From assembly GCA_029559475.1 (NCBI GenBank), contig JAKQBN010000055.1, positions 7,089 to 71,088 on the forward strand: 64,000 nt of DNA, read 5' to 3'. The translations under genes were made by a program, and so were the position numbers. The notes below the pieces were generated by a model. The model made no database searches, was not told the DNA's origin, and saw only the letters and a list, made by a program, of their open reading frames with translations. Every line of letters begins with the position of its first letter. The first letter of the stretch is position 1. The stretch is from a bacterium. GTDB taxonomy: Bacteria > UBA4055. Shown piece by piece: positions 7,216-63,076 of the stretch.

Positions 7216-7263
7216 GCATTAAATTTAACCGAAAAAAGAAATAAAGTCAAAAAGTTTTGAGAC

Positions 7264-7339
7264 CGCCATTATTTGGCGTTATCACTGTATTATATTACAT
7301 CCGGTATCAAAAGTTGTCTAAACTTAACCGGAGGAAAAA
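7264..7339 (+). promoter_or_regulatory. conserved leader copy A (hairpin cgcca-ttatt-tggcg + tatatt box + RBS)
   Basis: The 17-mer cgccattatttggcgtt (7264-7280) is identical to 11346-11362. Downstream blocks ttatatt / ccgg(t)at / taaact occur in the same order in both copies. It ends in ggagg RBS + ATG 7340. Confidence 0.5.
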
Positions 7340-7612: not shown

Positions 7613-7633
7613 AAAGCGAGGGAATAACAGAAT

Positions 7634-7927
7634 ATGAAAGTATTACAAAACATTATAGATTATCTTCTGCAGGAGAACAAAATCAAGCAGGATGATTATA
7701 ATTACCTTCAGCAGAAGGGTTTTTATGTCTTAGATTATGATGATCTGGATTTTTATGATGACGGATACTGGCGCATAGTTGAACAGGAAAATGAAGATTA
7801 TTGGAAGTATTATGAGGAAGATTATAATGATATTGAATTTGAGCCTTCTTTAGCAGATAAAAGAAGAAGAAAACAGGGTAGAAGAGCCCGTTTTGAAGGA
7901 CCGAAAAGAATCCGGCGGGCAGCATAA
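7634..7927 (+). CDS. hypothetical small protein, D/E/Y-rich core with basic tail
   Basis: 97-aa ORF. The central DYDDLDFYDDGYWRIVEQENEDYWKYYEEDYNDIEFE is followed by KRRRKQGRRARFEGPKRIRR. Confidence 0.5.
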   Translation: MKVLQNIIDYLLQENKIKQDDYNYLQQKGFYVLDYDDLDFYDDGYWRIVEQENEDYWKYYEEDYNDIEFEPSLADKRRRKQGRRARFEGPKRIRRAA

Positions 7928-7947
7928 ATAAGACTGGAGATAAATTT

Positions 7948-8961: not shown

Positions 8962-8963
8962 AT

Positions 8964-10163
8964 ATTAATGAAAACATACTTCAAGAAGCAAAACAGGCAC
9001 TGCATATTGTCCGCATAACCGTTCCGTATCTTGCCGAACTTGCCGATGCTGTAGAACTTATACCGGATGACAGGATCGAAACCGCAGGTATATTTGCTTC
9101 GGGAAGGCTGATATTTAATCCTGAGTGGTTTGCAAAACTTTCATTAAGAGACAGATCGTTTGTCATTGCGCATGAAATTATGCATCTCGCGCTTAGAACT
9201 CATCACCGGACACTCATTCAGGACAGAGAACTGTTTAATATCACACATGATTTTATAATTAATGAATATCTAAAAGAGTCGTTTGGTCTGACTGAAACTC
9301 CGGCGGACGGCCTTGACTGGCAGACTGAATTCGGACGATATTACGATATAAAAGACAAACCGGCAGAAGAACTTATGAAGTTTATAAAAGACTCTTTCGG
9401 TAAGGAGCTTGATCGAAAAAGGATATACAGGCTGGTTTGCGATGTGTTTTCTGATGAGCTGGAATTAAAATTATTTCCCGGTCTGTCAATTCAAGATCTA
9501 ACTGCAAGAAAAGCAGACATAAATAGCAGATCGTTCAAGGCTATCAGCACCAAACTCATAATTGATAAAGCTGATTTAATCTTCGGAAAGGGTACAACTA
9601 CCGGCGATAATTCAAGTACTTATGATATGATTAGATCATTATATAAACCGCCGTGGGAGGCGGCTTTACAGAGCTGGATTGATTTCGCCATTCGGACAGG
9701 CCATACCTATTCACGCCCGAGCCGAAGAGGACAGAGCGCAGATTATGTTTTGCCCGGATATAAAAGGGAAGGCCATACACTGCATATTCTTGTTGACACA
9801 AGCGGTTCAATGTCAGGCGCACTAGGAATAGTACTGGGCGTAATAGCATCTTTCTGTGATGATCTGCAGGTTGAAAACATTCACATAATTCAATGTGATG
9901 CAGGTGTAAGCGACGACAACTGGTTTACGCCAGATCAATTAAACAGATTTAAGGTAAAAGGGCTCGGAGGAAGCGATATGTCTCCCGGAATGTATCGCCT
10001 GCAAAATGACCCTGAAGTCCAATATGCCCTGATAATTACCGACGGTTATATTGATTATCCGACGATCTCTATGCCATATCAGGTTCTCTGGGTATTGACG
10101 GAACAAAATTGCAGCTTTAAACCGGATTACGGTCAAATCATCAGTTTGCCTGCGTTGAAATAA
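8964..10163 (+). CDS. putative metallopeptidase (DUF2201_N-like, HExxH) + VWA domain protein; start codon unresolved
   Basis: The frame is open from 8931. Translation gives ...PYLAELA...FNPEWF...FVIAHEIMHLALRTHH (HExxH) and a C-terminal VWA MIDAS motif LVDTSGSMSG. No in-frame ATG/GTG/TTG occurs before 9180. The start here is set at ATT 8964 as a placeholder (see finding). Confidence 0.7.
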   Translation: MNENILQEAKQALHIVRITVPYLAELADAVELIPDDRIETAGIFASGRLIFNPEWFAKLSLRDRSFVIAHEIMHLALRTHHRTLIQDRELFNITHDFIINEYLKESFGLTETPADGLDWQTEFGRYYDIKDKPAEELMKFIKDSFGKELDRKRIYRLVCDVFSDELELKLFPGLSIQDLTARKADINSRSFKAISTKLIIDKADLIFGKGTTTGDNSSTYDMIRSLYKPPWEAALQSWIDFAIRTGHTYSRPSRRGQSADYVLPGYKREGHTLHILVDTSGSMSGALGIVLGVIASFCDDLQVENIHIIQCDAGVSDDNWFTPDQLNRFKVKGLGGSDMSPGMYRLQNDPEVQYALIITDGYIDYPTISMPYQVLWVLTEQNCSFKPDYGQIISLPALK

Positions 10164-10166
10164 TTG

Positions 10167-10292
10167 ATGTTGGTGATGACGGCACTGTTCTTCTGCACAG
10201 GCGTTTATGCGTGGAGTTATATCAAGGATTATTCGTCGGGCAAGCGGTTGTATGAGTTCGACGGCGAGTATATCAAAGACTATTCGTCATAA
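10167..10292 (+). CDS. 41-aa ORF with internal YIKDYSS repeat (possible 4-fold beta-flower-like fragment)
   Basis: MLVMTALFFCTGVYAWSYIKDYSSGKRLYEFDGEYIKDYSS. Hydrophobic N-terminus, and YIKDYSS occurs twice. Too short to be confident. Confidence 0.25.
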   Translation: MLVMTALFFCTGVYAWSYIKDYSSGKRLYEFDGEYIKDYSS

Positions 10293-10439
10293 TTCCCAGA
10301 GTTATCGTCGCGCTGATCGTGCTGCAGGGATTGTAAGCTACTCATTAAATTTCAGATAAAAAATATCATATTTAGATAAGAGTGTCATTAGATGAACGTC
10401 ATCGTTTCGTATATTGCGGGTAAGTAAGCGGAGATTTTT

Positions 10440-11333
10440 ATGAATACGCATGAATTAGAAAAGTTTGATGAAGATATCATCAGGGACAAGATCTATTCGA
10501 TCCGGGGATTTCAGGTAATGCTGGATTCTGATCTGGCAGAATTGTATGGTGTTGGGACTAAGATACTTAATAAAGCAGTGAAAAGAAATAGCGCTAGATT
10601 CCCTGCGGAATTTATGATGAAATTAACTCAGGATGAATACGAATGTATTTCAAACTTGAGGTTCCAAAATGGAACCTCAAGTTGGGGTGGTACAAGATAT
10701 CTTCCTTTTGTTTTCACTGAGCAGGGAGTTGCAATGCTCGCAGGAATTTTAACTAGTGAGACAGCTATAATAATCAGTATTAAGATTATCAAAGCTTTTG
10801 TCGAGATGCGTAAATTCATTCAATCAAATGCGCAGGTGTTTCAAAGACTTGATAGAGTAGAAATCAAGCTGATAGAAAATGATGTTAAATTCGATAAATT
10901 GTTTACCGCTCTTGAGAATAAAAAATTCCAGCCTAAGCAGGGAATATTTTATGACGGGCAGGTTTTCGATGCGTATAAGTTCGTGTCAGACCTGTTCAGG
11001 AGCACGAAAAGTTCCATTCTTATAATAGATAATTATATTGACGATTCGGTTCTGATTCATCTGACAGTGGTTTCAAAAAGCGTAAAGGTTAAGATACTCA
11101 CGAAATCTATATCGGATAAGCTTGTTTTGGATATAAAAAAGTTCAGCGAACAGTATTATCCTATTGAGGCTAAAGTATTCACTCTCGCGCATGATAGGTT
11201 CATTATTATTGACGATAAAGATGTTTATCACTTTGGAGCATCATTGAAAGACTTGGGAAAAAAATGGTTCGTGTTCTCGAAGATAGAGAAGTCTGATATG
11301 GAATTATTAAGCAGGCTGGAGAAAGTGAAATAA
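10440..11333 (+). CDS. ORF6N (KilA-N-like) domain DNA-binding protein
   Basis: IYSIRGFQVMLDSDLAELYGVGTKILNKAVKRNSARFPAEFMMKLT is the classic ORF6N signature. Confidence 0.8.
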   Translation: MNTHELEKFDEDIIRDKIYSIRGFQVMLDSDLAELYGVGTKILNKAVKRNSARFPAEFMMKLTQDEYECISNLRFQNGTSSWGGTRYLPFVFTEQGVAMLAGILTSETAIIISIKIIKAFVEMRKFIQSNAQVFQRLDRVEIKLIENDVKFDKLFTALENKKFQPKQGIFYDGQVFDAYKFVSDLFRSTKSSILIIDNYIDDSVLIHLTVVSKSVKVKILTKSISDKLVLDIKKFSEQYYPIEAKVFTLAHDRFIIIDDKDVYHFGASLKDLGKKWFVFSKIEKSDMELLSRLEKVK

Positions 11334-11345
11334 TTTTTATCCAAG

Positions 11346-11417
11346 CGCCATTATTTGGCGTTGTTCCAATGTTATATTCCGGATATGAATGTTAAACTCA
11401 GAAAAAGGAGAAAAAAT
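11346..11417 (+). promoter_or_regulatory. conserved leader copy B (same hairpin + tatatt box + RBS)
   Basis: Carries the 17-mer identical to 7264-7280 and collinear downstream blocks. It ends in aggag RBS + ATG 11418. The ORF-track start at 11355 falls inside this element. Confidence 0.5.
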
Positions 11418-13064
11418 ATGAAGGGACCGGTACACATAAAACTGATAGAAATAGCATCTGATGAGATGAACCTGACGAGACAGGTAAATACGGACGAGAT
11501 AAAAATGCTTATGAACGATTACGGTCTTACGAACAGCGAGGCCGTAATTTTCGCTTTTCTTTTAAAATATTCCATGGAAAGAACTCACCTCGAACTTGAA
11601 AAATTCGACAATCAGATCGTACGCAAAGGCGATGAAAATTATATAAGAATATACAGAGACCTTAAAAGCATGCAGAAGAAAGGTGTCATCGCGTTGAACG
11701 CGGAAGGCAGAAGGAGAAGGGGGGACGACCTTTTTAATCCCGCTATATCAATAGATGAAGCCGTTTTTTCAAGATTAGTCCTCGGAGAGGATATGTTCGC
11801 CGATACCGATTTTTCCTGCCCGTACTCTATACTCGAAACCGCGGATGAAGTAATAGACTCTAGGCTGGCTGAAAAGATATCCGGCGAGCAGTTCGAAAAA
11901 AGGATCGATATGCTAATGTCCAAAGCCGATCATAGCCTTGAATTAGTAAAAGTCCTGAAAAAATATGAAATAATAGAAAAAGCGCTGATCTTCAGAGCCT
12001 GCCTGAACGAAATAAAAGGCGACAGCGACGATACGATCAACGGATTCATATCAAATTTCGTATCATCCCTTTCGGAATCCGGAAGGATAATGAAGAAAAT
12101 ATATGAAAAGCGTATGAAATGCTTTAACGACAAGGTACTTGAGCTTAAAGACGGCCGCGGGATATTCGGGCTTATGGGTAATCCGGTTTTCATTATAACG
12201 GAAAAATATTTCGAGAAGATGTTCGATACGAAAACAAAGATCAAGATAAAAGAATTCACTCCGCGCTATACAGAACTTGTTAAGCACAAGGATATGAAAA
12301 AAGAACTTTTTTTCGAGCCGGGATTGAAAAAGGAAATAGATACGATCGCTTCCGCGCTCGAAGCAAAAAGATTTAAAGAAGTCTCGAAAAAGCTTAAAAG
12401 CAACGGGTTCCCTCAGGGTATAGTATCTATATTATACGGGTATCCCGGTACAGGGAAGACAGCGAGCGTTCACGAGATCGCAAGAGTTACGGGACGCAAC
12501 ATACTTCAGGTCGATATATCGAACATAAAGGATATGTACGTCGGCGAAAGCGAAAAGAGACTGAAGGATGTTTTTAAGGAATACAAAAAAGCGAAGAACA
12601 TTTTTAAAAAAGCTCCTATCCTTCTTTTCAACGAGGCTGACGCCATAATAGGTAAAAGGATCAATGTGTCCGACAGCGTGGACCAGATGTATAACAATAT
12701 GCAGAACATAATTTTGGAGGAGCTTGAAAAATTCGAGGGTATATTCTTCGCCACGACTAACATGATAAACAACATAGATGACGCTTTCGACAGAAGATTT
12801 TTATTCAAGGTGGAATTCGGAAAACCTTCACCCGAGATCAGAAAAAGGATATGGTCGTCCAAAATGAAAGATATTCCTGAGGAGTGGACAGATATCCTTT
12901 CGGTCTATGAGCTTACCGGAGGCCAAATAGACAACATAGTAAGAAAATACATGATCGACAGCGTGTTGAAAGATGTAAAAGGTATCGACGGGCTCAAAAA
13001 GTTTTGTTATGCGGAAACTGCTTTTAAAAAGGAAGGAACCCGCATTATCGGTTTCGGAAGATAA
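11418..13064 (+). CDS. AAA+ ATPase (classic AAA clade) with ~330-aa N-terminal non-ATPase region
   Basis: Walker A GYPGTGKT, Walker B ILLFNEAD, sensor-1 FFATTN, Arg-finger region DDAFDRRF. The start was moved to MKGPV (aggag 7 nt upstream). Confidence 0.8.
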   Translation: MKGPVHIKLIEIASDEMNLTRQVNTDEIKMLMNDYGLTNSEAVIFAFLLKYSMERTHLELEKFDNQIVRKGDENYIRIYRDLKSMQKKGVIALNAEGRRRRGDDLFNPAISIDEAVFSRLVLGEDMFADTDFSCPYSILETADEVIDSRLAEKISGEQFEKRIDMLMSKADHSLELVKVLKKYEIIEKALIFRACLNEIKGDSDDTINGFISNFVSSLSESGRIMKKIYEKRMKCFNDKVLELKDGRGIFGLMGNPVFIITEKYFEKMFDTKTKIKIKEFTPRYTELVKHKDMKKELFFEPGLKKEIDTIASALEAKRFKEVSKKLKSNGFPQGIVSILYGYPGTGKTASVHEIARVTGRNILQVDISNIKDMYVGESEKRLKDVFKEYKKAKNIFKKAPILLFNEADAIIGKRINVSDSVDQMYNNMQNIILEELEKFEGIFFATTNMINNIDDAFDRRFLFKVEFGKPSPEIRKRIWSSKMKDIPEEWTDILSVYELTGGQIDNIVRKYMIDSVLKDVKGIDGLKKFCYAETAFKKEGTRIIGFGR

Positions 13065-35565: not shown

Positions 35566-35590
35566 GACTTTTTTGCGACGAATAAATTTA
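35566..35590 (+). repeat. junction repeat M1 (gacttttttgcgacgaataaattta)
   Basis: 22/25 identical to M2 at 37321-37345. It overlaps the RhuM stop codon. Confidence 0.85.
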
Positions 35591-36637
35591 TTTTAATTTC
35601 TTTACATCTATTTTTTTGATATCTGTTTCAAGCTCTTTCAGGCTATTTTCTCTTTCTGCAAGCCTCTGGTTCTCAATGAATTTCTCATATTCGGCTTCTG
35701 ACTTCTCAAGAGCTGCCTGATGACTTATTTTTCCTGCGTGTGTGAGTAATTCTCTCTTGTTCATTTTTAAAATATCGTCAAGCTTTTCTATCCAGTCTTT
35801 CATATACATCGGAATATGCTGATTCGCCATTGTCTCAGCGAACGCGAGATACTGCTCCACAAGAAGCCCGAGAAGGCTCATTTCGTTCTCATTCAGATAA
35901 TTTTTTGCTGTCGAAACTTCGCTTTTTGTAATTCGTGTGCCGGAATCTTTATCGTAAGACTGCATGCCCATCAAAGGCATTTTTGCATCAGCTCTTCGAT
36001 AAATCAGCTCAGCTGCGGTCTGCTTACTTATAGCCCATAATAGTTTATTCTGAACGATCTTGAAGAATTCGATAGTTTTTTCATCTTTGGGATTATAATC
36101 TATGCTTGTTGTATAAATATCTTTGATCTTCTGATAAAAGAACCGTTCTGAGATCCTTATCTCGCGAAGTCGTGCCTGAAGTTCGTTAAAATAATTCATC
36201 GAATTACCCTTTTTGAACCTCTCATCGTTCAGAGTGAAGCCTTTAACGATATATTCCTTAAGCCTCTGAGTAGCCCATTTTCTGAATTGGGTACCCTGGA
36301 GTGATTTTACACGATATCCGACAGAAATTATAGCATCGAGATTATAATAATTAACTTCCGTTTCTTGAGTTTTACCTTCAATTGCACCGTGCTGAGTGGT
36401 TTGTCGGAATTTCCGACATACCATATGTTCATCCAATTCGCACTCTTTAAAAATATTTCTAATATGTTCAGTTATTGTCGTTCTGCCTTTCCCGAAAAGC
36501 TGAGCTATCTGATTTTGATTCAGCCATACGGTTTCACTTTCCAGGATCACATCGATCTTTACTTTGCCGTCATCAGCTTCGTAAACAAGGAATTGGCTGC
36601 TCTTCGAATCATGTATTGTGATATCATTTTTTGCCAT
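35588..36637 (-). CDS. RhuM-family protein
   Basis: N-terminal FLVYEADDGKVKIDVILESETVWLNQNQIAQLFGKGRTTITEHIRNIF and the central region are typical of RhuM. Confidence 0.8.
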   Translation of the reverse strand: MAKNDITIHDSKSSQFLVYEADDGKVKIDVILESETVWLNQNQIAQLFGKGRTTITEHIRNIFKECELDEHMVCRKFRQTTQHGAIEGKTQETEVNYYNLDAIISVGYRVKSLQGTQFRKWATQRLKEYIVKGFTLNDERFKKGNSMNYFNELQARLREIRISERFFYQKIKDIYTTSIDYNPKDEKTIEFFKIVQNKLLWAISKQTAAELIYRRADAKMPLMGMQSYDKDSGTRITKSEVSTAKNYLNENEMSLLGLLVEQYLAFAETMANQHIPMYMKDWIEKLDDILKMNKRELLTHAGKISHQAALEKSEAEYEKFIENQRLAERENSLKELETDIKKIDVKKLK

Positions 36638-36695
36638 ATATTCTCCTCAGTAACTTCATAGGCAATTTAAGAAAAAATTCAAAGATATTCTATAT

Positions 36696-36733
36696 TTACC
36701 TGAATTATTTACATGAACCTTATTATTGACGAT
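36696..36733 (+). repeat. junction repeat N1 (ttacctgaattattta...ccttattattga)
   Basis: 32/38 identical to N2 at 38022-38059, including an exact 16-mer. Contains ACCTGAAT, also present in R1/R2. Confidence 0.85.
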
Positions 36734-36784
36734 TTGATTTAATCGGAAAAATTCGTATATTACGGATAAGAAAACGGAGTAAGA

Positions 36785-37033
36785 ATGCCTGTAATATCAA
36801 GATTCTATGGCATAATAATTAAGATGTACTTCAATGAGCACGGAATTCCTCATTTTCATGCTATTTATAATGAGTATAACGGAGTTTTCAGCATATCTGA
36901 TCTGATAATGATAGAAGGGGATTTGCCTTCAAAAGCACAGACACTTGTAAAGGAGTGGGCATTTAAATATAAAGATGAACTTGAAAAGATGTGGGCAACG
37001 AAAGACATAATTACTCTTCCGGGGTTGGAATAA
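36785..37033 (+). CDS. DUF4160-family protein
   Basis: MPVISRFYGIIIKMYFNEHGIPHFHA is the DUF4160 signature. Confidence 0.8.
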   Translation: MPVISRFYGIIIKMYFNEHGIPHFHAIYNEYNGVFSISDLIMIEGDLPSKAQTLVKEWAFKYKDELEKMWATKDIITLPGLE

Positions 37034-37320
37034 TGAATTTCCATAGAATTAAAAATATAGAGGTTTTGAATAATTATCAGCTCAAAGTTGAATTTATAAC
37101 CGGCGAAATAAAAATATACGATTGCAAACCACTGCTTGAGAAAGATGTTTTCAAAGCTCTGGAAAATGAGAATTTATTCAGGAAAGTAAAGGTTGATATT
37201 GGAGGCTACGGTATTATCTGGAACGATGAAATTGATATTTCTGAATCTGAATTATGGATAAACGGCAAAAATATTAACTCCCAAGTCGCTGAAGACAAAG
37301 CAGATTACAATTCAAAATAA
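37033..37320 (+). CDS. DUF2442-family protein (usual partner of DUF4160)
   Basis: The ATG overlaps the upstream stop (taATG). IKNIEVLNNYQLKVEFITGEIKIYD resembles DUF2442. Confidence 0.75.
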   Translation: MNFHRIKNIEVLNNYQLKVEFITGEIKIYDCKPLLEKDVFKALENENLFRKVKVDIGGYGIIWNDEIDISESELWINGKNINSQVAEDKADYNSK

Positions 37321-37345
37321 GACTTTTTTATAACGAATAAATTTA
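37321..37345 (+). repeat. junction repeat M2 (gacttttttataacgaataaattta)
   Basis: Starts immediately after the DUF2442 stop codon. 22/25 identical to M1. Confidence 0.85.
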
Positions 37346-37350
37346 CTCGA

Positions 37351-37899
37351 TTACGGCAGGCGGCCGAGCAGAAGGTTTAAACTCAGGCCCGCAAAGCTTT
37401 TCTCCGCATTGATATTCCCGAAAGCCGAAAGACTTAATCCGAAAGGACGCGCTCTGTTCAGATCAAGCTGAATTTCCAAAGGAAACCCGAATGTCTGAAA
37501 ATTGTTCATTTCGTATCTTGGTGAAGGATCGTTCTCAATAAAATATTTTTTACCTTCATATTCACCGGTTGTAACACTAATACCGCAAAGATATGATAAA
37601 TGAATATTCCCGAAAGATCGTCCGTATCCGTAAAGCAAACCATAATCCCAGGCTGAACCGCCATTATAAGGCTCACACGAAATAGTGCTACCTCCCGCAA
37701 TTCTCAACTTGATAACGTGCGTGTATTTTGAAAAATTGATTGAAACATTACCGCCTGTTAAGCCTGTATCCTCTGTAACAACTGCGCCTAATCCTGCGCT
37801 GAACCAGAGATGGTAGGGGAAAGGTCCGGTGCGTTCCTTGAAATTTATCGCGTTCAGGCATGAGGCGGTGAAGATCAGGAACAATAAAAAATACTTCAT
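37351..37899 (-). CDS. putative secreted or outer-membrane beta-rich protein
   Basis: N-terminal signal peptide (MKYFLLFLIFTASCLNA). Gly/aromatic-rich alternating pattern. No family recognised. Confidence 0.45.
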   Translation of the reverse strand: MKYFLLFLIFTASCLNAINFKERTGPFPYHLWFSAGLGAVVTEDTGLTGGNVSINFSKYTHVIKLRIAGGSTISCEPYNGGSAWDYGLLYGYGRSFGNIHLSYLCGISVTTGEYEGKKYFIENDPSPRYEMNNFQTFGFPLEIQLDLNRARPFGLSLSAFGNINAEKSFAGLSLNLLLGRLP

Positions 37900-38021
37900 T
37901 TTGACCTCAGTTTTGCAGTCGAATTACACTTTCTGATAATTTAGGAACACTTGAGACTTTTTGCAAGGTAATATTATCGTTTTGCTGTCCTCAGCAAAAT
38001 GATCGGAACTCACATTTCCGC

Positions 38022-38059
38022 TTACCTGAATTATTTATAAAAGCCTTATTATTGAAGAG
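38022..38059 (+). repeat. junction repeat N2
   Basis: 32/38 identical to N1. Its last 11 nt overlap the stop and last codons of the DUF4143 ATPase gene. Confidence 0.85.
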
Positions 38060-39254
38060 TTGGTTTAGACAGAAAATCAAACAGATTTATATGTTTTACG
38101 CCTGACTTTCTTTTAAAAACGACCGGATCCATTGAAATAACATACTTCGGATGGTTGTCCCTGACAGCCTCAAGGGCTGAAAACTCTCTTTCTGCTGTTT
38201 CCTGATTCTGCATCAGATATGATACCTGAATATAGATTTTTTCTTCTTCCTTTTCCGCTATAAAATCAATTTCCTTGTCTCCTATTCTGCCGAATGATAC
38301 TTTATAATCCCTTCTGTAAAGCTCAAGGCAGACTATGTTCTCCAGTATTCCGCCGATATCTTCATCTCTGAATCCCAGTACCGCGTGTCTTAAACCCAGG
38401 TCGCCGGCGTAATATTTTGCGTTCGTGTCAAGATATTCTTTTCCTTTTAAGTCGTATTGCCTGATCTTATGTGTGATCATTACATCGTTCAGGTTGTGTA
38501 TAAGGCTCAGAATAGTCGGAACACTGGTTTTTATGTGCTGGTTCTTCATATATTTTACGACGCTGCTTGCGTTGAACTGATTACCTATGTTATCGAAAAC
38601 AAAGCTCACTACGTCCTCCAGCAGGCTCACATTCCTTACATTGAATTTCTTAACTATATCTTTGAGAAGTATCGTCTGGTAGATAGCATCAAGGAACTGA
38701 AATGTTGCGGAAGCTTGAAAATCCAGATGAAAAAGTCCCGGCAGCCCTCCGAATCTGATATATTTTCTGAATACTTCCTCCTTCGGCTTACTTTCAAAAC
38801 CTCCGAGCTCGGTAAATTCATTGAAGCTGAAAGTATATATTTTGAACTCGACATATCTGCCTGAGATCAAAGTGGCAAGATCAGATGAGAGAAGATGCGA
38901 GTTCGATCCTGTGATATAAACATCCATGCCTTCAGCCAGAAAAGAGTTCACCGACCGTTCCCATTCCTTTATTTCCTGTACTTCATCAATAAGGATAACC
39001 GAACCGGACTTTCCTCCCGATTCGTCTATATAGCTATTCAATACTTTATAGTCAGTTATAAAATCGAACTGACGAAGCTCTTTATTTATTGAAATGACTT
39101 TCTTTTTCGGTTCGTTATGTTTTATCTCAGCTTCGATCTGCTTCAGCAGTTCACTTTTTCCCACCCTTCTCATACCGCTCAGGATCTTTATGACCGGTTT
39201 ACCCATAAAAGGCCTGATCTTTTTTAAATATGTTTCCCTTATTATAGTTTTCAT
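38049..39254 (-). CDS. AAA_14 + DUF4143 ATPase
   Basis: Walker A SGMRRVGKS, Walker B VILIDEVQ. C-terminal DUF4143-like region (GRIGDKEIDFI...). Confidence 0.8.
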   Translation of the reverse strand: MKTIIRETYLKKIRPFMGKPVIKILSGMRRVGKSELLKQIEAEIKHNEPKKKVISINKELRQFDFITDYKVLNSYIDESGGKSGSVILIDEVQEIKEWERSVNSFLAEGMDVYITGSNSHLLSSDLATLISGRYVEFKIYTFSFNEFTELGGFESKPKEEVFRKYIRFGGLPGLFHLDFQASATFQFLDAIYQTILLKDIVKKFNVRNVSLLEDVVSFVFDNIGNQFNASSVVKYMKNQHIKTSVPTILSLIHNLNDVMITHKIRQYDLKGKEYLDTNAKYYAGDLGLRHAVLGFRDEDIGGILENIVCLELYRRDYKVSFGRIGDKEIDFIAEKEEEKIYIQVSYLMQNQETAEREFSALEAVRDNHPKYVISMDPVVFKRKSGVKHINLFDFLSKPTLQ

Positions 39255-39409
39255 GTTTTAATTCCTATTTTAAATTCCTGACAAAATAAAGGAAATTTAA
39301 TATATACTTTAGATAAATGCAAGTTTTTAATTAATTTAAAATGTAAAATTATTTAAATATTAAAGCTGCGGCTTCATACTGCGTAGAAGTATCATTTATT
39401 TCTGACCAC

Positions 39410-39497
39410 TTTTGGCTGTTTTACAAGGATAATAAATAACATTAATGGACAAAAGGAAAGGTTATTTTAACAATATTTTGGCTATTTTACAAGGATA
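39410..39497 (+). repeat. two 22-nt direct repeats (ttttggctRttttacaaggata) 66 nt apart
   Basis: 39410-39431 and 39476-39497 differ at one position. They lie in the 336-nt AT-rich gap upstream of the DUF4143 ATPase gene. Confidence 0.85.
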
Positions 39498-39590
39498 CTT
39501 TATTTTGAACGATTAATTAACAGGCATATAGGGTAAGTTTCAAATCAACGATACAAGATAAAATTCCCAAATATTCTATAACTACCTTCA

Positions 39591-40094
39591 CTACCCCAGC
39601 CCCAGCACCAATTCCGGAATAAACTTATTCCTTGCGTCAGGATAGATCTTCTTTCTAAAGTTCTCTACCGCAATTTTCTCATATAAGTATAAAGACCCTC
39701 CGTCTCCGGCTATTGAATATTTAGGCATAATAATATCACCCAGCTTAATATCCGCTTTCAAAGCACCTGCCGCGCCTATGAATATCACTTTTTTGCATTT
39801 CGATCCGCCCAGAGTCAAACATGAATCGATCGTATTGGCCGCACCCGCCGCTACCTGAATATAGCCGAAACTTTTACCTTCAAATTCTACGGTATAACCG
39901 CAATAATACGGACCTTTTTTTTCTACTCTGACCACAGGATTGTATGCCGAAAAAATAATTTCAGGATTCCACGAAGGAGCCACGATTACCGCATCGTATT
40001 CAAAATCGGGATCTAACCCGTAGATATCTTTCAGCAGATTATCACAGGCGTTATACTTATGCAGGGATGATTTAAATTTTTCGTAGAGGGTCAT
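39591..40094 (-). CDS. nucleoside phosphorylase-family (PNP_UDP_1-like) protein, apparently C-terminally truncated
   Basis: VIFIGAAGALKADIKLGDIIMPKYSIAGDGGS resembles the phosphorylase core. At 167 aa it is short for the family. Confidence 0.45.
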   Translation of the reverse strand: MTLYEKFKSSLHKYNACDNLLKDIYGLDPDFEYDAVIVAPSWNPEIIFSAYNPVVRVEKKGPYYCGYTVEFEGKSFGYIQVAAGAANTIDSCLTLGGSKCKKVIFIGAAGALKADIKLGDIIMPKYSIAGDGGSLYLYEKIAVENFRKKIYPDARNKFIPELVLGLG

Positions 40095-40179
40095 CTATTC
40101 GAACTCCTTTGAGCATTTGAGCCTGAAGCATTCAGATACTTATAACTTTTTTTTGTCGTCAATCTAAGAGGGAATAGTA

Positions 40180-40731
40180 TCATTTTTCAAGAAATTGAAT
40201 AGCTTTATATATATTTGAGTATGATCCTCCTTTAAGTTCTAATTCTGAAGCGTATTGAACGGCTTTATACTGTCCTGAAATTAATTTTTCAACCCACTCT
40301 CTATTTTTTAGAAATTTCTCAGTTTTATCATAGCTCTCAATATATTTCAGTAACTCTTTTTTCAATTCGCCATAACTAGAGTATCGCTTATTGCGCTGAA
40401 CAAAATGGATAAGGAACCAGAATTCTATTGAAGGCAGGCTGTCGCAAATCAGCACGTTTTTATTGTCTTTGTATCTTTTTCTAAACTTTTCCAGTTTATC
40501 CTTCTCAACGTCATTTCTTTGTGATACATCAGCATCGAATACGCATATCGCTACAGCATCGGCTTCTAAAATTTCCTTTACTTTTTTCTCTATCTTCGAG
40601 ATGCAGGTATTACTGTCGCAAAATCTTGGACTCACACTATATTTATAATCTTTAAGAATTTTCAGGTGTTTAAAGTAATATTTTTCTGTTACACCTTCTC
40701 CGATTATATGTATTGCTTGCTTTAATTTCAT
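40180..40731 (-). CDS. RloB/AbiLii-like protein
   Basis: The N-terminal IHIIGEGVTEKYYFKHLK matches the RloB signature (cEGe.TE..Yf). It sits 7 nt downstream of the ATPase partner. Confidence 0.75.
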   Translation of the reverse strand: MKLKQAIHIIGEGVTEKYYFKHLKILKDYKYSVSPRFCDSNTCISKIEKKVKEILEADAVAICVFDADVSQRNDVEKDKLEKFRKRYKDNKNVLICDSLPSIEFWFLIHFVQRNKRYSSYGELKKELLKYIESYDKTEKFLKNREWVEKLISGQYKAVQYASELELKGGSYSNIYKAIQFLEK

Positions 40732-40738
40732 TATAATC

Positions 40739-42034
40739 TTAATCTATATTAGGCACTGCTCCGAATTTTCCGTATTTATATGCTTTCTGCAGAGATGAGA
40801 TTCTGTTAAGACCGTTGAAACCTGTAAGGGGATAAAGCTTTGTCGAGCCGTCTTCTCTTTTTTCCGTGAACCAGAAATTATCCTTTCTAAGAAGATCTGT
40901 TTCGTCGAATAAATTGTCATAGTGAGTCGCAACAAGCACCTGAGCTTGGTCTGAATTACGTAGAAAATGCTCAAGAACATATTCAATAAGCCTTGGATGC
41001 AGCTTTGATTCTATCTCATCTATCGTAATGAATGCGTTATCCTCAATCGATTTAATAATTGCTCCGAACAAACCGAATATTCTTTTTGTACCCTCTGATT
41101 GCCATTCTATAGGCAGTCCGTAAATTTCTTTTCTACCATCGCTGACGACAGTATGCTTGAATTCAGTTACAGGATATTTAAAACTCTTATCTTTTTTTAA
41201 ATCTTCAATAACAGATGCGCGAATACTTAAAAAATTACCTATTGTCTGAGCCTGTTTTATAAAATCATCATCAACACTCTGAACGAATTCTTTGACATTT
41301 ATATCAGAAATATTAAAATCAGCCTCTTTCAGGCACTCAAGCATTTTTAATTTATGGCTAGGGTTTGTTTTAATTAATTCCTCTGAAAAATGCTGTAAAG
41401 GATCGTTAGGCACGATTGAATTGAAAACATGATCAAATAGCCATTTTGTAACATCGCTCAAGCCGTTCAGATAAGCATTTATCTTTCTCAATGCCGCCAG
41501 GACAGACATATTTTTCAAACATTTTACATTTAGTTCATCTTGAGTGATCTTGCTGATATTGTTTTTTCCTTTAAAAACTATTTTGGAAACGTCCGACTTC
41601 TCGTCATAATTTCTTTCAAAAAGAGTAGCAGGCTGAGTACCCGGATACATATCAAGCTTTTCATAAAGGACAGCTTTCTGATCGACCTCTAAATAATAAA
41701 CATATTTGATCCCATCTTTATAAAAAACAAGCTTAAACACGCTCGGGTGGTTTCTGCTTGTTTTATCGAGAAGAAAAGGTATTGCATTGGTGCCGGAATA
41801 CTTATTGTCGGTTCCTATAAACCAGAAATTTATAAGGAACTGAAAAGCAGCTATAAGATTAGACTTTCCGGACGCATTGGAACCATATAAAATGCCCAAC
41901 TTTAACAGGCGGACCCCTTTTGCGGCCTCTACAACATGATGATCTTCAAAAGTCCTGTCTTTCGAAGCTTCGAAAGAATATGTAACTTCATCTCTGAACG
42001 AGAGAAAATTCTTGATTGTAAGTGAATGTATCAT
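40739..42034 (-). CDS. AAA_21/ABC-type ATPase, AbiLi-like partner of RloB
   Basis: Walker A YGSNASGKSN, Walker B/D-loop FITIDEIESKLHP. Confidence 0.8.
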   Translation of the reverse strand: MIHSLTIKNFLSFRDEVTYSFEASKDRTFEDHHVVEAAKGVRLLKLGILYGSNASGKSNLIAAFQFLINFWFIGTDNKYSGTNAIPFLLDKTSRNHPSVFKLVFYKDGIKYVYYLEVDQKAVLYEKLDMYPGTQPATLFERNYDEKSDVSKIVFKGKNNISKITQDELNVKCLKNMSVLAALRKINAYLNGLSDVTKWLFDHVFNSIVPNDPLQHFSEELIKTNPSHKLKMLECLKEADFNISDINVKEFVQSVDDDFIKQAQTIGNFLSIRASVIEDLKKDKSFKYPVTEFKHTVVSDGRKEIYGLPIEWQSEGTKRIFGLFGAIIKSIEDNAFITIDEIESKLHPRLIEYVLEHFLRNSDQAQVLVATHYDNLFDETDLLRKDNFWFTEKREDGSTKLYPLTGFNGLNRISSLQKAYKYGKFGAVPNID

Positions 42035-42371
42035 TTTTCCGGTTCCGGCAGATTAAACATTGTCAGAAATGTAAAACAAAACACTTAATTTGTCAAGTGA
42101 GTTTATGAAAATAGCAGAAAAATTGCAAAAACATAAAATAAGGTTGTTGTATAAATATAATTATCCTATTTGTTGTGTTAACTTTAAAAAATTACTAACT
42201 TATCTATACGCCAATAATATTTTTTCTAATTTCATAATATAATTTTAATTTAAAAATTACTTTGGATTATTATTATTAATGGGATAGATTTAGTTTATAT
42301 TTGTATCGTAAAGTGAAAAGTCAGGGAACTACGGGAGAGTCCAAATGAGTGAGCCTGTAAACGAAAGAAAC

Positions 42372-42439
42372 ATTGTCGTATCGACAAAACGACAATTAAC
42401 AATAATGCAAGGTTAGATGCATGGAAAAAGATTCCATGC
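42372..42439 (+). other. two hairpins in the leader of the DUF5131 gene
   Basis: attgtcg (42372-78) / cgacaat (42390-96) with an 11-nt loop. gcatgga (42419-25) / tccatgc (42433-39) with a 7-nt loop. The second ends 36 nt before ATG 42475. Confidence 0.4.
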
Positions 42440-42474
42440 GAGTAAATCTGTAATTAGAGAAAAGTAAAACGCAA

Positions 42475-43209
42475 ATGGCAACGACTAAGATAGAATGGAC
42501 AGAATCAACATGGAATCCGATCACCGGATGCACAAAATTATCCGCAGGCTGCAAATTCTGTTATGCCGAAGTAATGGCGAGAAGGCTCAAAGCTATGGGA
42601 CAGCCGAAATACAAAGACGGTTTCAAGCTTACGCTCCATCCCGACACGCTGACAGAACCTTACACTTGGAAGAAGCCTAAAATGATCTTCGTGAACTCAA
42701 TGAGCGATCTCTTCCATAAAGATGTCCCCGTTGATTACATACAAAAAATATTCAAAGTCATCAAAGACAATCCTCAGCATGTATTTCAGATACTAACAAA
42801 AAGAGCCGACATATTAAGATACTACGACAGTGAAGGCTGGCTTGACTGGCCGCATAACCTTTGGATGGGCGTGACAGTGGAAGATTCAACCGTAACATCA
42901 AGAATTGACTGCCTGAGAAAAACAAAAGCAAGAGTAAAATTCCTCTCCTGCGAACCGCTCCTAAGCTCATTACCCGAACTCAACCTACAAGCAATAGACT
43001 GGGTCATCGTAGGCGGAGAAAGCGGAAGAACACCGCGCCCGATCAAAGAAGAATGGATAATCGAAATAAAAGAACAATGTGAAAAAGCCGGAACAGCATT
43101 CTACTTTAAACAGTGGGGCGGCACCAACAAAAAAGAAGCAGGCAGGCTGTTACAAGGCAAAAGGTACGATCAAATGCCTGAAATGGTCGAGCAAGAAACT
43201 CTAATATAA
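42475..43209 (+). CDS. DUF5131 (phage Gp37/Gp68) family protein
   Basis: MATTKIEWTESTWNPITGCTKLSAGCKFCYA, with three Cys, is the family N-terminus. Also GGESG...FFKQWG. Confidence 0.85.
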   Translation: MATTKIEWTESTWNPITGCTKLSAGCKFCYAEVMARRLKAMGQPKYKDGFKLTLHPDTLTEPYTWKKPKMIFVNSMSDLFHKDVPVDYIQKIFKVIKDNPQHVFQILTKRADILRYYDSEGWLDWPHNLWMGVTVEDSTVTSRIDCLRKTKARVKFLSCEPLLSSLPELNLQAIDWVIVGGESGRTPRPIKEEWIIEIKEQCEKAGTAFYFKQWGGTNKKEAGRLLQGKRYDQMPEMVEQETLI

Positions 43210-43234
43210 AACTTTTTGTTACGAATAAATCTTA
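43210..43234 (+). repeat. junction repeat M3 (aactttttgttacgaataaatctta)
   Basis: Starts right after the DUF5131 stop. Shares acttttt + acgaataaat with M1/M2 at the same spacing (one T fewer). Confidence 0.6.
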
Positions 43235-49810: not shown

Positions 49811-50030
49811 AATTTCCAAGTTTTAAAGTTACAGAATGCTTAACTGAGAGGAAAGTGAGGACTATTTTTGATAGCAATAGACCACTTTTTGTTTAATAGA
49901 ATGAGATATTTTAATGAACTGCTTCGTTTTATAGCTGCGTTATCGTTTCATTTATGACATTAGGAAAATAAAACCTTATGAATGAATAATCAAGTAAATT
50001 GCTTTAGTATTTTGTCTGATATAATTCGAA

Positions 50031-50087
50031 TTAATTAACTTTCTTATACCTGAATACTGCGTAGTTGGTTACGACTGTGCTGTAATG
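50031..50087 (+). repeat. direct repeat R1: displaced copy of the ABC-2 permease 3' end
   Basis: Aligns to 51835-51892 with 4 mismatches and 1 indel over 58 nt. Its minus strand encodes STVVTNYAVFRYKKVN*, against STVVTAYAVFRYKKVN* in the real gene. Confidence 0.9.
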
Positions 50088-50109: not shown

Positions 50110-50138
50110 TTGACAAAAATAATTGACATGTGTATATT
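50110..50138 (+). promoter_or_regulatory. near-consensus sigma70 promoter of the XRE-Panacea gene
   Basis: TTGACA (50110-15), 17-nt spacer, TATATT (50133-38). A second TTGACA lies at 50123-28. aggagg RBS before ATG 50165. Confidence 0.55.
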
Positions 50139-50164
50139 GCAGCTACATATTATACAGGAGGTTT

Positions 50165-51022
50165 ATGATGGCGATGAATGAATACATTAGAAAAATGAGA
50201 GAAATGAAAAATATTTCTCAAGAGATCGCCGCAAAAGAACTGGGATATACAAGACAGACATATATACAGATCGAGAGCGGCAGCAGAGATATTACTTTAA
50301 GCGAGTTGAAGAAACTTTCGGCTATGTTTGATATTCCTTTTAATAAATTTGTGACCGAAACAGAACCTGACACATTTAACATAGATTTTGAGGAAAAGGA
50401 AGCGGATATTGAGTCAAAGGAGATAAGGATAAGTGTTCCGCAGAACAGAGTCGGTAAATTCAAGGAGGTTCTGCTTTATATTCTGTCTAAGGCGGGAGCA
50501 AAGCCGAACATTGGTGAGACAGCTATTTATAAACTTTTGTATTTTATTGATTTTGATTATTACGAGAAGTATGAAGAACAGTTGATAGGGGCGAATTATA
50601 TCAAAAATCATTATGGACCGACTCCAGTGATATTTAAAAAACTGACTGAAGAAATGATCGCTGATAATGAGCTTGAAGTGATCGAAAAAACTTATTATGA
50701 ATTCAATCAAAAGAAATATTTACCGAGAAGATGTGCCGATTTAAGTAAAATATCCGCCCGTGAGATTAAGCATATTGACGAGGAACTGGAAAGGCTAAGT
50801 GATAAAAATGCAGCTGAGTTGAGCGAGCTGTCGCATAAAGATGTCCCGTGGATCACAGCGAAGGAAGGTGAAACGATTGAATATGAAGGCGTTTTTTACC
50901 GCACAGGAGATACTTCGGTGAGATATAAAAAATTGAAAGATCGTATGTCCATGGCTGCGGAAGCTTTGTATAACGATTATTGTTCTGATAAAGAGCTCAC
51001 TGCATTTACCGATCTTATTTGA
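50165..51022 (+). CDS. XRE-family HTH fused to Panacea (DUF4065/SocA-like) antitoxin-type domain
   Basis: The HTH is ISQEIAAKELGYTRQTYIQIESG. The Panacea-like core is GETAIYKLLYFIDFDYYEKYEEQLIGANYIKNHYGPTP. The ORF-track start at 50123 is actually a -35 box. Confidence 0.8.
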   Translation: MMAMNEYIRKMREMKNISQEIAAKELGYTRQTYIQIESGSRDITLSELKKLSAMFDIPFNKFVTETEPDTFNIDFEEKEADIESKEIRISVPQNRVGKFKEVLLYILSKAGAKPNIGETAIYKLLYFIDFDYYEKYEEQLIGANYIKNHYGPTPVIFKKLTEEMIADNELEVIEKTYYEFNQKKYLPRRCADLSKISAREIKHIDEELERLSDKNAAELSELSHKDVPWITAKEGETIEYEGVFYRTGDTSVRYKKLKDRMSMAAEALYNDYCSDKELTAFTDLI

Positions 51023-51693: not shown

Positions 51694-51834
51694 AATAATT
51701 TTCTCCTTTTGCTATTCTGGTTCAATTTAGCAAAAAAAAGGATTAATTCCAAATGAAATATCAAAAAAGGCGGTCAGGGATGTTCTGACGCAGATTTTCA
51801 GAAAAACTGTTAATGAACATTGTGATACTCTTCA

Positions 51835-51892
51835 TTAATTCACTTTCTTATACCTGAATACTGCGTATGCGGTTACGACTGTGCTGTAAATG
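51835..51892 (+). repeat. direct repeat R2 (functional 3' end of the ABC-2 permease gene)
   Basis: Partner of R1. Includes the 16-nt near-palindrome tactgcgtatgcggta. Confidence 0.9.
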
Positions 51893-61018: not shown

Positions 61019-63076
61019 ATGAAACTTTTAGGAAATATTATCGCTTTGCTGATTGTTGTAGTAATACTTGCAGGATGCGTAAGCACTGCGTATAAGACCG
61101 CAACTATTGCGAATACGATTGCATCTTACGATCAATTCCTTAGAAATCATCCTGGCAGTCAATTTGAATCTGATGCCCGGAGTCGGCTCGACTCGCTGTA
61201 CTTTCAGAGTACCGAGTGGGAAGGTTCGATCCAGGCGTATGAGAACTTCCTTCAAGTGCACAAGAACTCTCCCTATATAGCAGAAGCCCGGAGTCGGCTC
61301 GACTCGCTGTACTTTCAGAGTACCGAGCGGGAAGGTTCGATCTATGCGTATGAGAACTTCCTTCAAGTGCACAAGAACTCTCCCTATATAGCAGAAACCC
61401 GGAGCCGGCTCGACTCGCTGTACTTTCAGAATACCGAGAAGTACTGGGCAGCTGCGCAAGAGACCGACAATATCGAAGGATATGTGGCATTCCTTGATGA
61501 ACATCCCGGGTCGTCTCGTACAAAGGAGGCAACAGCACGAAAAGAATTGCTCGAAAAACACTTGGACGAATGGAAAGATGTCATGCGTAATCCTACCAGG
61601 CAGAGTCTCATGCTTTACTGCGACCGGAATTCGGATAGCCCTTACCTCACAAAAGCAAGGGTTGTAATTCAGGACATGGAAGGACGCGACATCGTCGATC
61701 TCCTGAATGAAAAAAAAGTCGAGATTGAGACCAATGGCAGTGGAATTCAGGAGATAAGAGCCCGTATCCGGAAGCTTGTAGATTATCCTATAAGGGTTCT
61801 TTTTCCTATTGGTAGCTACTTTGTCTCCTCCAGGCTGTCGGCGCAGAACATGGTATCGACAGCAGAGACGAGCATGCATCTTACAGGCAGCGAATGGAAA
61901 TCGGTTTCGATATCGGCAGCATGCGCTAATAGACTAAAGCATATTCCTGGTTCAGAAGACACGTTCACTGTTCAGCGATTATATTTGGAGGAACTGGCTA
62001 GAATTATGCCTGTTCTTGATAAGGCAGGTGTGAGTTACGAAACACGCCAAGCAGCAGTATGGATTGTGACGGACAATGCCGATTACAATGATCTTGGAAT
62101 CCTTGTCCAAGACGACAGAAGTCGAGAAATAAACGAACTTGAAGCGGCGCGTGCCATGAAGATTTGCGTCGAAGCTGGTATTGATATCCGGCTGAAGAGA
62201 ATCTGGAGCGACTGGCAGGAGATTATTACTGGATTGCATGACGCTGAATTGAAGACATGGTTCGCTATTTACGGAGCACATTTTCTTGATTCAGATAAAA
62301 AAAGTGCTAAAGATCGAAATAACAAAAAGGTACAGAAAAATATTGAAGCAATCCCTGAAATGGTATTTGTGGAGGGTGGTACGTTTCAGATGGGAAGTAC
62401 TAGCGGAGATCAAGATGAAAAGCCTGTTCATAATGTAACACTTTCTGATTTTTACATCGGCAAGACTGAGGTGACACAGGCGCAGTACCAGGCTGTCATT
62501 GGCGAAAATCCGTGTTGTTTTAAAGACGATAATTTACCGATAGTAAATGTGTCTTGGTACGATGCAGTTAATTTCTGCAATAGGCTTAGTGAAATGGAGG
62601 GACTGGATATTTGTTACAGTGAAAACGATTTTAAAATTACCTGTAATTTCAAAGCCAAAGGGTACAGGCTCCCGACTGAGGCTGAATGGGAGTATGCAGC
62701 AAGAGGGGGGAATAATAGCAAAGGATACAAGTATTCCGGAAGCAACAATGCAGATGATGTTGCCTCAGAGTATGGTTCGAATCCATATTCTGTAGCAGCA
62801 AAACAGCCTAATGAAATTGGTATATATGATATGAGTGGAAATGTCTGGGAGTGGTGCTTTGATTGGTACCGCAGTTACATGAACAGTCCAAGTAATAATC
62901 CAACAGGGCCAAGTTCGGGCTATAATATAATCTGCAGTGGCATCTGGGACCACTTTGTCGGGTTCTGCCGCGTCCTACGGGGCGGCGACTGGAAATACCG
63001 GTGTGTTGATCGATACTACTATCCCCCATGGCGCAGAATCAACCGCGTCGGCTTTCGTGTCGCAAGGACGCCTTGA
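61019..63076 (+). CDS. lipoprotein with TPR-like repeats and C-terminal FGE-sulfatase (SUMF1/EgtB/PvdO-type) domain
   Basis: Lipobox LAGCVS. The C-terminus carries GGTFQMGS...DEKPVHNVTLSDFYIGKTEVT, YRLPTEAEWEYAARGG, NVWEWCFDWY, RVLRGGDW and GFRVARTP. Confidence 0.85.
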   Translation: MKLLGNIIALLIVVVILAGCVSTAYKTATIANTIASYDQFLRNHPGSQFESDARSRLDSLYFQSTEWEGSIQAYENFLQVHKNSPYIAEARSRLDSLYFQSTEREGSIYAYENFLQVHKNSPYIAETRSRLDSLYFQNTEKYWAAAQETDNIEGYVAFLDEHPGSSRTKEATARKELLEKHLDEWKDVMRNPTRQSLMLYCDRNSDSPYLTKARVVIQDMEGRDIVDLLNEKKVEIETNGSGIQEIRARIRKLVDYPIRVLFPIGSYFVSSRLSAQNMVSTAETSMHLTGSEWKSVSISAACANRLKHIPGSEDTFTVQRLYLEELARIMPVLDKAGVSYETRQAAVWIVTDNADYNDLGILVQDDRSREINELEAARAMKICVEAGIDIRLKRIWSDWQEIITGLHDAELKTWFAIYGAHFLDSDKKSAKDRNNKKVQKNIEAIPEMVFVEGGTFQMGSTSGDQDEKPVHNVTLSDFYIGKTEVTQAQYQAVIGENPCCFKDDNLPIVNVSWYDAVNFCNRLSEMEGLDICYSENDFKITCNFKAKGYRLPTEAEWEYAARGGNNSKGYKYSGSNNADDVASEYGSNPYSVAAKQPNEIGIYDMSGNVWEWCFDWYRSYMNSPSNNPTGPSSGYNIICSGIWDHFVGFCRVLRGGDWKYRCVDRYYYPPWRRINRVGFRVARTP
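61175..61440 (+). repeat. 111-bp (37-codon) tandem repeat, about 2.4 copies, inside the lipoprotein gene
   Basis: Copy 1 (61175-61285) and copy 2 (61286-61396) differ at 3 positions. A third partial copy starts at 61397. Confidence 0.9.

Follow-up and report, generated by a model that had tools for sequence, protein, structure and literature searches.

A repeated gene-end motif in a variable defence island as a probable relic of a lineage-specific promoter module

In integrons, single-gene cassettes end in attC sites, imperfect palindromes of 57-141 bp that have RYYYAAC/GTTRRRY cores and fold in single-stranded form; the cassettes lie co-oriented next to intI. Promoters of Bacteroidota have a consensus of their own (TTTG / TAnnTTTG) that differs from the sigma-70 type. 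At a larger scale, core defence hotspots, for example cDHS1 of Pseudomonas aeruginosa, are flanked by conserved core genes; the Pseudomonas hotspots have consistent core flanks and an unclear mobile-element identity, and exchange by homologous recombination is given as possible (Johnson et al., 2023, PMC10250203). Here we describe a 25-nt motif that occurs three times (M1, M2 and M3; Table 1) at gene ends in a 64,000-nt stretch of bacterial DNA (hereafter the window; UBA4055, GenBank assembly GCA_029559475.1, contig JAKQBN010000055.1, positions 7,089 to 71,088), inside a variable island of defence and toxin-antitoxin genes. Based on comparison with related genomes, we suggest, with a probability of about 60%, that M1-M3 derive, in degenerate form, from the upstream part of a promoter module specific to this lineage. 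We regard the motif as real but fairly ordinary, one more case of the known kind in which a promoter or intergenic module is repeated and leaves relics.

M1 (GACTTTTTTGCGACGAATAAATTTA) and M2 (GACTTTTTTATAACGAATAAATTTA) are identical at 22 of 25 positions, or at 23 of 26 if the preceding A is counted, and M3 (AACTTTTTGTTACGAATAAATCTTA) retains ACTTTTT and ACGAATAAAT but requires two 1-nt indels for alignment. The DUF2442 open reading frame (ORF; 36991-37320, plus strand) ends one base ahead of M2, the DUF5131 ORF (42475-43209, plus strand) ends one base ahead of M3, and the RhuM gene (35588-36637, minus strand) has its stop codon at 35588-35590, the final three bases of M1. Viewed on the minus strand, each copy is found just 3´ of a minus-strand gene, at a distance of 0 nt (RhuM), 5 nt (a gene for a 182-aa protein) or approximately 45 nt (PD-T7-3). 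The 10-mer ACGAATAAAT has exactly three occurrences in 128 kb (both strands of the window), which are those in M1, M2 and M3, and each is located 3-4 nt past ACTTTTT, in the same orientation, between genes and inside a 17-kb island. Sequence and ORF coordinates thus bear out the original prediction, which had described two closely similar copies and a gapped third one, placed at gene ends in one orientation. It had also held that the motif forms no hairpin and is not a terminator, and we agree: fold z-scores for the M copies range from -0.6 to +0.4 on both strands relative to shuffled sequence, and no site resembling an intrinsic terminator (a G+C-rich hairpin followed by a U-tract) is present at any of them. 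Rfam covariance models identified no family, the only match being a sub-threshold chance similarity to a snoRNA (37873-37938) that partly overlaps the leader of M4, a further copy described below.

Taken alone, the M1/M2 pair is only marginally unusual. An all-against-all scan of the window returned five direct 25-mer pairs with at least 22/25 identity, and the four besides M1/M2 are obvious true repeats; shuffles matched for local composition yielded one such pair in seven (p about 0.1). When the window was searched fuzzily for more full-length copies, only matches with five errors turned up, which is the level of shuffled sequence. The family membership of M1-M3 is nevertheless real, because the element recurs in related genomes, and this recurrence is the decisive support. 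The source genome is present in neither the GTDB genomes nor the JGI/ENA metagenomes, both of which were scanned with the exact pattern AAATTTATTCGTNNNAAAAAAGT. The GTDB scan gave 13 loci, 12 in unrelated taxa and contexts and one in a true relative (L105, Candidatus Delongbacteria bacterium UBA12480), and the metagenome scan gave 32, of which 31 were unrelated and one (L136) was a true relative. Homologues of the 182-aa protein (P0121-P0138) led to five further loci of the same lineage (L145, L146, L147, L149 and L150) and to L151, from a Delongbacteria metagenome-assembled genome (MAG). Exact-protein look-ups for cyclophilin, DUF5131, RhuM and DUF2442 returned the source organism alone, with identical synteny and no strain-level variation, and placed the window in MAG GCA_035422465.1, contig DAOMLF010000006.1. 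A loose pattern, ACTTTTTN{3,4}ACGAATAAAT, had 88 matches in phage contigs that collapsed into approximately 15 near-identical groups, roughly what chance would give, and was uninformative.

Approximately 15 further copies were found across L105/L136/L149, L145, L146, L147, L150 and L151, corresponding to six related genomes, and the named relatives with copies are labelled Candidatus Delongbacteria. Written on the minus strand of the window, the direction of most island genes, the alignment gives the family consensus GG-ATTTATTCG-TTGCAA-AAAGTNTCAT. The copies in relatives lie on the gene-direction strand, in intergenic sequence, and all are within the same hypervariable island between the ABC-2 permease and cyclophilin genes. 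In 40.6 kb from five relatives, 10 copies with no more than three mismatches were detected, all on one strand, compared to a mean of 0.58 and a maximum of 3 in shuffled sequence. One of these ten (L105:1037) is inside a gene and is probably a chance match. In L151, whose core genes share only ~73% DNA identity with the window, ATTTATTCGTTGCA is found exactly. Features of repetitive extragenic palindromic (REP) elements or miniature inverted-repeat transposable elements (MITE) were not seen: the motif has no symmetry, matches in the window with up to three mismatches are confined to the 17-kb island, and the copies examined in relatives are likewise restricted to it. The family, its orientation and its position are established directly, and the mutual relatedness of the copies, which had been proposed from the window, holds. 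That M1-M3 resemble one another by chance, as AT-rich intergenic sequences might, would fit the marginal M1/M2 pair and the chance-level exact-pattern matches in unrelated taxa and phages, but is refuted because the element recurs in six related genomes, always on one strand and between genes, approximately 17-fold above shuffles; we give it next to no weight.

The copies in front of genes have a shared architecture. Nine copies precede a co-oriented gene (M4 in the window, L105:5277, L145:384, L146:3382, L147:493, L150:2903, L150:6670, L151:4637 and L151:6919). All of them carry a TTGCAA-like hexamer and, at a spacing of exactly 17 nt, one of TAAATT, TAACTT and TATATT; within these islands, TAnnnT has a background frequency of 0.024 per position. 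The -35-like hexamers of M4 and the intact relatives read TTGCAA, TTGCAC, TTGCTA or TTTCAA, and the distance from the hexamer to the ATG is ~55-65 nt in eight of the nine and ~120 nt in L105:5277. As judged by eye, the spacers and leaders of the nine belong to approximately four unrelated groups. M4, a half-diverged copy that the original prediction missed, has an intact right half and a diverged left half (AATATTACC), with GACTTTTTG at 37955, and is homologous to L145:384 and L151:4637, both upstream of paralogous genes. The commonest neighbours of the module, before and after it, are members of the paralogue family of the 182-aa gene. One locus carries a tandem duplication of the module (L150 6637-6702), with a 33-nt period (6637/6670), between a gene of the 182-aa family and an AAA_14 gene; of the two copies, only the second is followed by TAnnnT at 17 nt.

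Intact copies resemble sigma-70-type promoters in the TTGCAA hexamer (a 4/6 match to TTGACA), the 17-nt spacer, the TAnnnT -10 box, the A/T-rich stretch directly upstream of the -35 and the presence of a co-oriented gene ~20-85 nt past the -10-like box, and we consider them predicted promoters. They differ in that ATTTATTCG is conserved as a specific sequence and not as the mere A/T richness of an UP-like element. M1-M3 have lost the hexamer, so they are not working promoters. All three hexamers are off consensus (Table 1), and TGGAAA (M1), TTGTAA (M2) and TTTCTT (M3) stand where TAnnnT would be expected 17 nt away. Ahead of M2 and M3 there are convergent genes and no co-oriented downstream gene. 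We read M1-M3 as probable relics because their hexamers are spoiled, no TAnnnT follows at 17 nt, and M2 and M3 meet convergent genes. For M1, the ATG of the pentapeptide-repeat gene is 26 nt downstream, too close for the expected -10 and start site; M1 and its flanks are kept in L105/L136/L149, where the hexamer is an intact TTGCAA. M3 has 0 mismatches to the family pattern ATTTATTCGT-NNN-AAAAAGT. The hexamer and spacing architecture, and its loss in M1-M3, are direct observations. A possible remnant of the 3´ end of a 182-aa-family gene before M3 was also considered, but with 8 comparisons made, the best value, p = 0.04, was not significant.

We suggest that the upstream part of the module comprises the A/T-rich box ATTTATTCG, the TTGCAA hexamer at -35 and the first bases of the spacer, and that the module heads gene cassettes of the island, mostly those encoding paralogues of the 182-aa, probably secreted protein, and at times the AAA_14 ATPase gene. 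The holoenzyme of RNA polymerase would recognise TTGCAA-N17-TAnnnT in intact copies, and transcription would start ~25-90 nt before the next start codon. Being repeated in one orientation, the modules could also provide short patches of identity at which cassettes are joined, duplicated or replaced, and a truncated module could stay at the joint after a cassette swap. M2 and M3 would then be leftovers abutting the stop codons of convergent genes, and M1 a leftover between RhuM and the pentapeptide-repeat gene. Under this model, attachment sites would not be needed to explain why a short motif stands where genes of a defence island end: a promoter module would be inherited with cassettes and leave truncated relics where cassettes are swapped. 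If cassettes do recombine at the module, the island would illustrate concretely how defence hotspots without an integrase are rebuilt. ATTTATTCGTTGCAAAAAGT provides a simple marker for cassette boundaries in this island.

Table 1. Positions and descriptions of the features discussed in the text
Feature	Coordinates	Strand	Description
M1	35566..35590	-	Reads TAAATTTATTCG-TCGCAA-AAAAGTC; probable relic, between the RhuM stop and the pentapeptide-repeat gene
M2	37321..37345	-	Reads TAAATTTATTCG-TTATAA-AAAAGTC; probable relic, filling the 30-nt gap between the convergent 182-aa and DUF2442 genes
M3	43210..43234	-	Reads TAAG-ATTTATTCG-TAACAA-AAAGTT; probable relic, between the convergent PD-T7-3-like and DUF5131 genes
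M4	37938..37979	-	TTGCAA at 37961-37966, 17-nt spacer, TAAATT at 37938-37943; promoter-like, upstream of the 182-aa gene
182-aa gene	37351..37899	-	Signal-peptide-like N-terminus MKYFLLFLIFTASC; C-terminus ..LLGRLP; no Pfam or PADLOC match
R1	50030..50085	-	Displaced duplicate of the permease 3´ end, 93% identical to R2, same C-terminal residues; unrelated to M
R2	51834..51889	-	Genuine 3´ end of the ABC-2 permease gene, C-terminus ...AVFRYKKVN-stop; right island border; unrelated to M
Island cargo (1)			Pentapeptide-repeat protein; RhuM; DUF4160/DUF2442 pair; 182-aa protein; AAA_14/DUF4143 ATPase (PADLOC PDC-S01)
Island cargo (2)			PNP-like gene; AbiL-like AAA_21 + RloB pair; DUF5131; PD-T7-3-like gene
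Island cargo (3)			SNF2 helicase operon; HTH-SocA/Panacea gene; PIN gene

The position of M2 coincides with a change in gene order. The window has the 182-aa gene, M2 and DUF2442 in succession. In L105/L149, only the left half of the motif, TAAATTTATTCGTTGC, comes after the homologous gene (186/180 aa), with an abrupt change to sequence from upstream of RhuM; the DUF2442 cassette is found beyond the AAA_14 gene (upstream of it) with a degenerate copy of its own, AATTATTCGCTACAAAAAGTA. The M2 junction of the window combines the left flank of L105:6509 with the right flank of L105:1450, the switch being inside the motif, and M2 is thus a real rearrangement (synteny) breakpoint relative to L105/L149; such a switch suggests recombination inside the module. 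The window-type M2 junction is kept in L146, with DUF2442 reduced to a 3´ stub. Upstream of the pentapeptide-repeat gene, relatives have RhuM and M1 (L105/L149), a 183-aa paralogue without M (L147) or AAA_14 (L150). The earlier statement that the copies sit at boundaries between unrelated modules stands as a description, given the M2 breakpoint and the varying upstream neighbour of M1.

Several points weigh against the promoter-module reading. The promoter activity of intact copies is predicted from a consensus, and the promoters of this lineage may be of the sigma-70 or the Bacteroidota type. A generic sigma-70 scan did not flag M1-M3, which gives no positive support, though it fits relics. 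The best-conserved block, ATTTATTCG, precedes the -35 and has a more specific sequence than UP elements typically do, and M4, which is apparently functional, has lost it. Conservation of ATTTATTCG may therefore reflect a regulator site, a recombination function or recent duplication. M3 is assigned from the window sequence, by its match to the family pattern. In addition, two half copies in relatives (L105:6509 and L145:1660) break at the identical point, directly after a TGC triplet, which is suggestive of site-specific recombination.

If the conserved box were the operator of a transcription factor that co-regulates the island cassettes, it would overlap the promoters without being a polymerase contact itself. 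The box is far more precisely conserved than the spacers and leaders, across different downstream genes and in a genome with ~73%-identical core genes, as such a site might be. We nevertheless consider an operator unlikely, since the box has no dyad or direct-repeat symmetry, is missing from M4 upstream of an intact gene, and has no candidate regulator; the only HTH gene in the island (50123-51022) is SocA/Panacea antitoxin-like. A different possibility is that the motif is an att-like or cassette-capture site for a recombinase encoded elsewhere in the genome, which would recognise ATTTATTCGT / AAAAAGT, cross over near the variable triplet, and move single-gene cassettes in or out. The location of copies exactly at cassette boundaries, the shared end point of the two half copies, the identical 16-nt TAAATTTATTCGTTGC on both sides of the RhuM cassette in L105/L149, the fact that the unrelated convergent DUF2442 and DUF5131 genes stop at the same position of the motif, and the separate occurrence of left and right halves (M4) are all in its favour. 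Yet no integrase, resolvase or transposase was found among the island ORFs (Pfam and PADLOC) or in the other parts of the window scanned against Pfam, which include the first 13 kb (~13-29 and 55-64 kb were unscanned), the halves show no dyad symmetry or structure, and the fixed distance to the -10-like box and start codon in the nine copies before co-oriented genes would be left unexplained. The 33-nt tandem duplication in L150 resembles slippage, and the exact-pattern scans of GTDB and JGI place the motif in this lineage only, apart from chance-level matches. Such a site is, in our judgement, improbable.

A reading more improbable still would place the motif at the centre of a cassette-capture system, integrase-independent or trans-acting, in an uncultured lineage of the FCB group. 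In such a system, single genes for defence or surface proteins would be inserted, excised and re-ordered at a ~27-nt site, with crossover at the variable triplet, and the promoter-like hexamers would express the captured genes in the manner of an integron with an unrelated site. Like attC, the motif is a short element that recurs at the ends of single-gene cassettes and sometimes abuts a stop codon. In contrast to attC, it is ~27 nt long without symmetry or fold, the gap at M2 measures only 30 nt, neighbouring cassettes are in both orientations, and no integrase was found. The fold, terminator, Rfam and distribution results exclude attC, a terminator, a repeat of the REP/MITE type and a known RNA family for the motif.

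The TAAATTTATTCGTTGC direct repeat in the UBA12480-type island brackets RhuM and its upstream region (~1.1 kb), at L105 6506-6521/7629-7644, and L149 has this repeat as well, at 4564 and 5687. It could reflect insertion between tandem module copies or a site-specific insertion. A second direct repeat, of 55 nt and 82% identity (window 36696-36750 / 38022-38076), brackets the DUF4160/DUF2442/182-aa block. Its copy 2 (38022-38076) comprises the last 9 codons of AAA_14, the stop codon and 27 nt downstream, and copy 1 (36696-36750), upstream of RhuM, looks like a remnant of the end of an AAA_14 gene (FPIKSNRQ-stop versus DFLSKPTLQ-stop). Part of the 55-nt repeat moves with the DUF4160 cassette in L105. 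In an independent assembly of the same organism (SRR5168926; L002/L005, L007; contigs 36709 and 6511), there is a break inside the DUF4160 gene, at the edge of a cassette located elsewhere in relatives, which may reflect strain heterogeneity at that junction.

Ahead of the AAA_14 gene, the window has two copies (39410-39431 and 39476-39497), spaced by 66 nt, of a second conserved intergenic motif, TATCCTTGTAAAAYAGCCAAAA in the gene direction. Relatives carry this motif at different junctions (L105 3231-3288; L146 ~3255-3340, with two copies; L150 ~2880-2900), and in L150 it directly abuts an M-like copy.

The original prediction had interpreted the M copies as older, decayed forms of the R1/R2 attachment sequence, which is the 3´ end of the ABC-2 permease gene, left behind by successive integrations. 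M2 can be aligned to R at 16 of 19 positions with one gap (score 12), a match equalled by 0.2-0.4% of random window oligomers (25-mers and 30-mers). This match hinges on a TAT triplet private to M2. The scores of M1, M3, ten copies from relatives and the consensus range from 5 to 9, and the consensus and 11 of the 12 individual copies match R at a level reached by 5-90% of random 30-mers; against R2, the consensus scores 7 (p = 0.30). Only M2 is above chance, and since the family consensus fits R no better than random 30-mers do, an outcome that the original prediction had itself named as refuting, the proposed descent from R1/R2 has to be given up as very improbable. Other observations do agree with it: the permease 3´ end is a true duplication or insertion point in two species, M and R share their orientation, and one minus-strand frame reads KFIRRKKV-stop in M1 and KFIRYKKVLF-stop in M2, reminiscent of the permease C-terminus. 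However, features common to the M copies are absent from R (TATTCGT versus TATTCAGGT, the AAAAAGT run and the ATTT extension), and because all M copies share them, the copies form a family of their own and are not independent decay products. Among the 120 closest permease homologues, no FIRYKKV ending occurs. Moreover, the M copies of relatives precede genes with promoter architecture, and the island scans detected no integrase.

The related idea that M encodes a displaced permease C-terminus (KFIRYKKV versus AVFRYKKVN) was dropped, as the 120 homologues end in ..AV[WF][RN]Y[RK]K.. and the consensus of the M family does not match R. In six frames of the window, the expression R[YRN][KR]K[VTF] matches only M1-3, R1, R2 and one other site. 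R1/R2 and a displaced copy in L097 do belong with the duplicated gene 3´ ends known as attL/attR, which elements leave when they integrate at a gene end; M differs in that its similarity to the permease 3´ end is at chance and in that its relatives are upstream of genes and not only at island borders. R1 and R2 bracket a 1.8-kb toxin-antitoxin block consisting of the HTH-SocA/Panacea and PIN genes. L097, whose permease is 72% identical, also carries a displaced permease 3´ end, ~2.4 kb downstream (L097 ~4990-5030). Its neighbour there, too, is a homologous HTH-SocA gene, but the cargo, an AAA_14/DUF234 ATPase, is not the same. Because of this second case, R1/R2 can be taken as a genuine insertion point. 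No integrase is present in the R1/R2 block or its L097 counterpart.

The island that contains the M copies is a low-GC mosaic of defence and toxin-antitoxin genes (Table 1) between core flanks of higher GC. On one side, the core genes extend up to 35005, where the cyclophilin gene encodes a type IX secretion sorting domain; on the other, two ABC-2 permeases and an ABC ATPase begin at 51835. A homologous island adjoins the cyclophilin gene in L105/L136, L145, L147, L149 and L151, and L151 holds the entire interval, with only 4.2 kb from the permease to the cyclophilin gene. Island content was different in every relative examined. Core genes have 73-84% DNA identity to the window, whereas the AAA_14 gene and its upstream region have 95-97.6% (window 38049-39351; L105 1907-3193; L136 12168-13454; L151 3348-4628); given this difference, the AAA_14 cassette appears to have been exchanged recently and horizontally. 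Two or three tandem paralogues of the 182-aa gene lie next to the cyclophilin gene in L105, L145, L147, L149 and L151, and the family probably comprises secreted or outer-membrane proteins that are not involved in defence.

The setting resembles the core defence hotspots of Pseudomonas (PMC10250203): in each relative examined, the same two core genes flank the island, which has no mobile-element marker genes and contains a varying set of defence genes, including AbiL-like, PD-T7-3, PDC-S01, DUF5131, RhuM and toxin-antitoxin pairs. The likeness concerns the island context, and a repeated junction or promoter module is not described in the passages of that paper considered here. Our data document a core-flanked variable hotspot in an uncultured lineage, with content that differs from genome to genome.

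The NCBI protein label for the source MAG is 'Clostridiales bacterium', and the syntenic relatives L105 and L151 are labelled Candidatus Delongbacteria. The Clostridiales label is probably wrong, given these relatives and the type IX secretion sorting domain encoded at the locus.

Elsewhere in the window, positions 1-13064 form a second low-GC defence island, with genes for DUF7663, a Type ISP restriction-modification enzyme (1044 aa), DUF4062, a Schlafen/AlbA_2-HATPase protein, MoxR-like AAA and VWA (DUF2201) proteins, an ORF6N-domain protein and an AAA ATPase. Finally, a 685-aa ORF (61019-63076) encodes a repeat-containing protein, with three tandem 111-nt units at 61172-61438 that are 95-100% identical where aligned.

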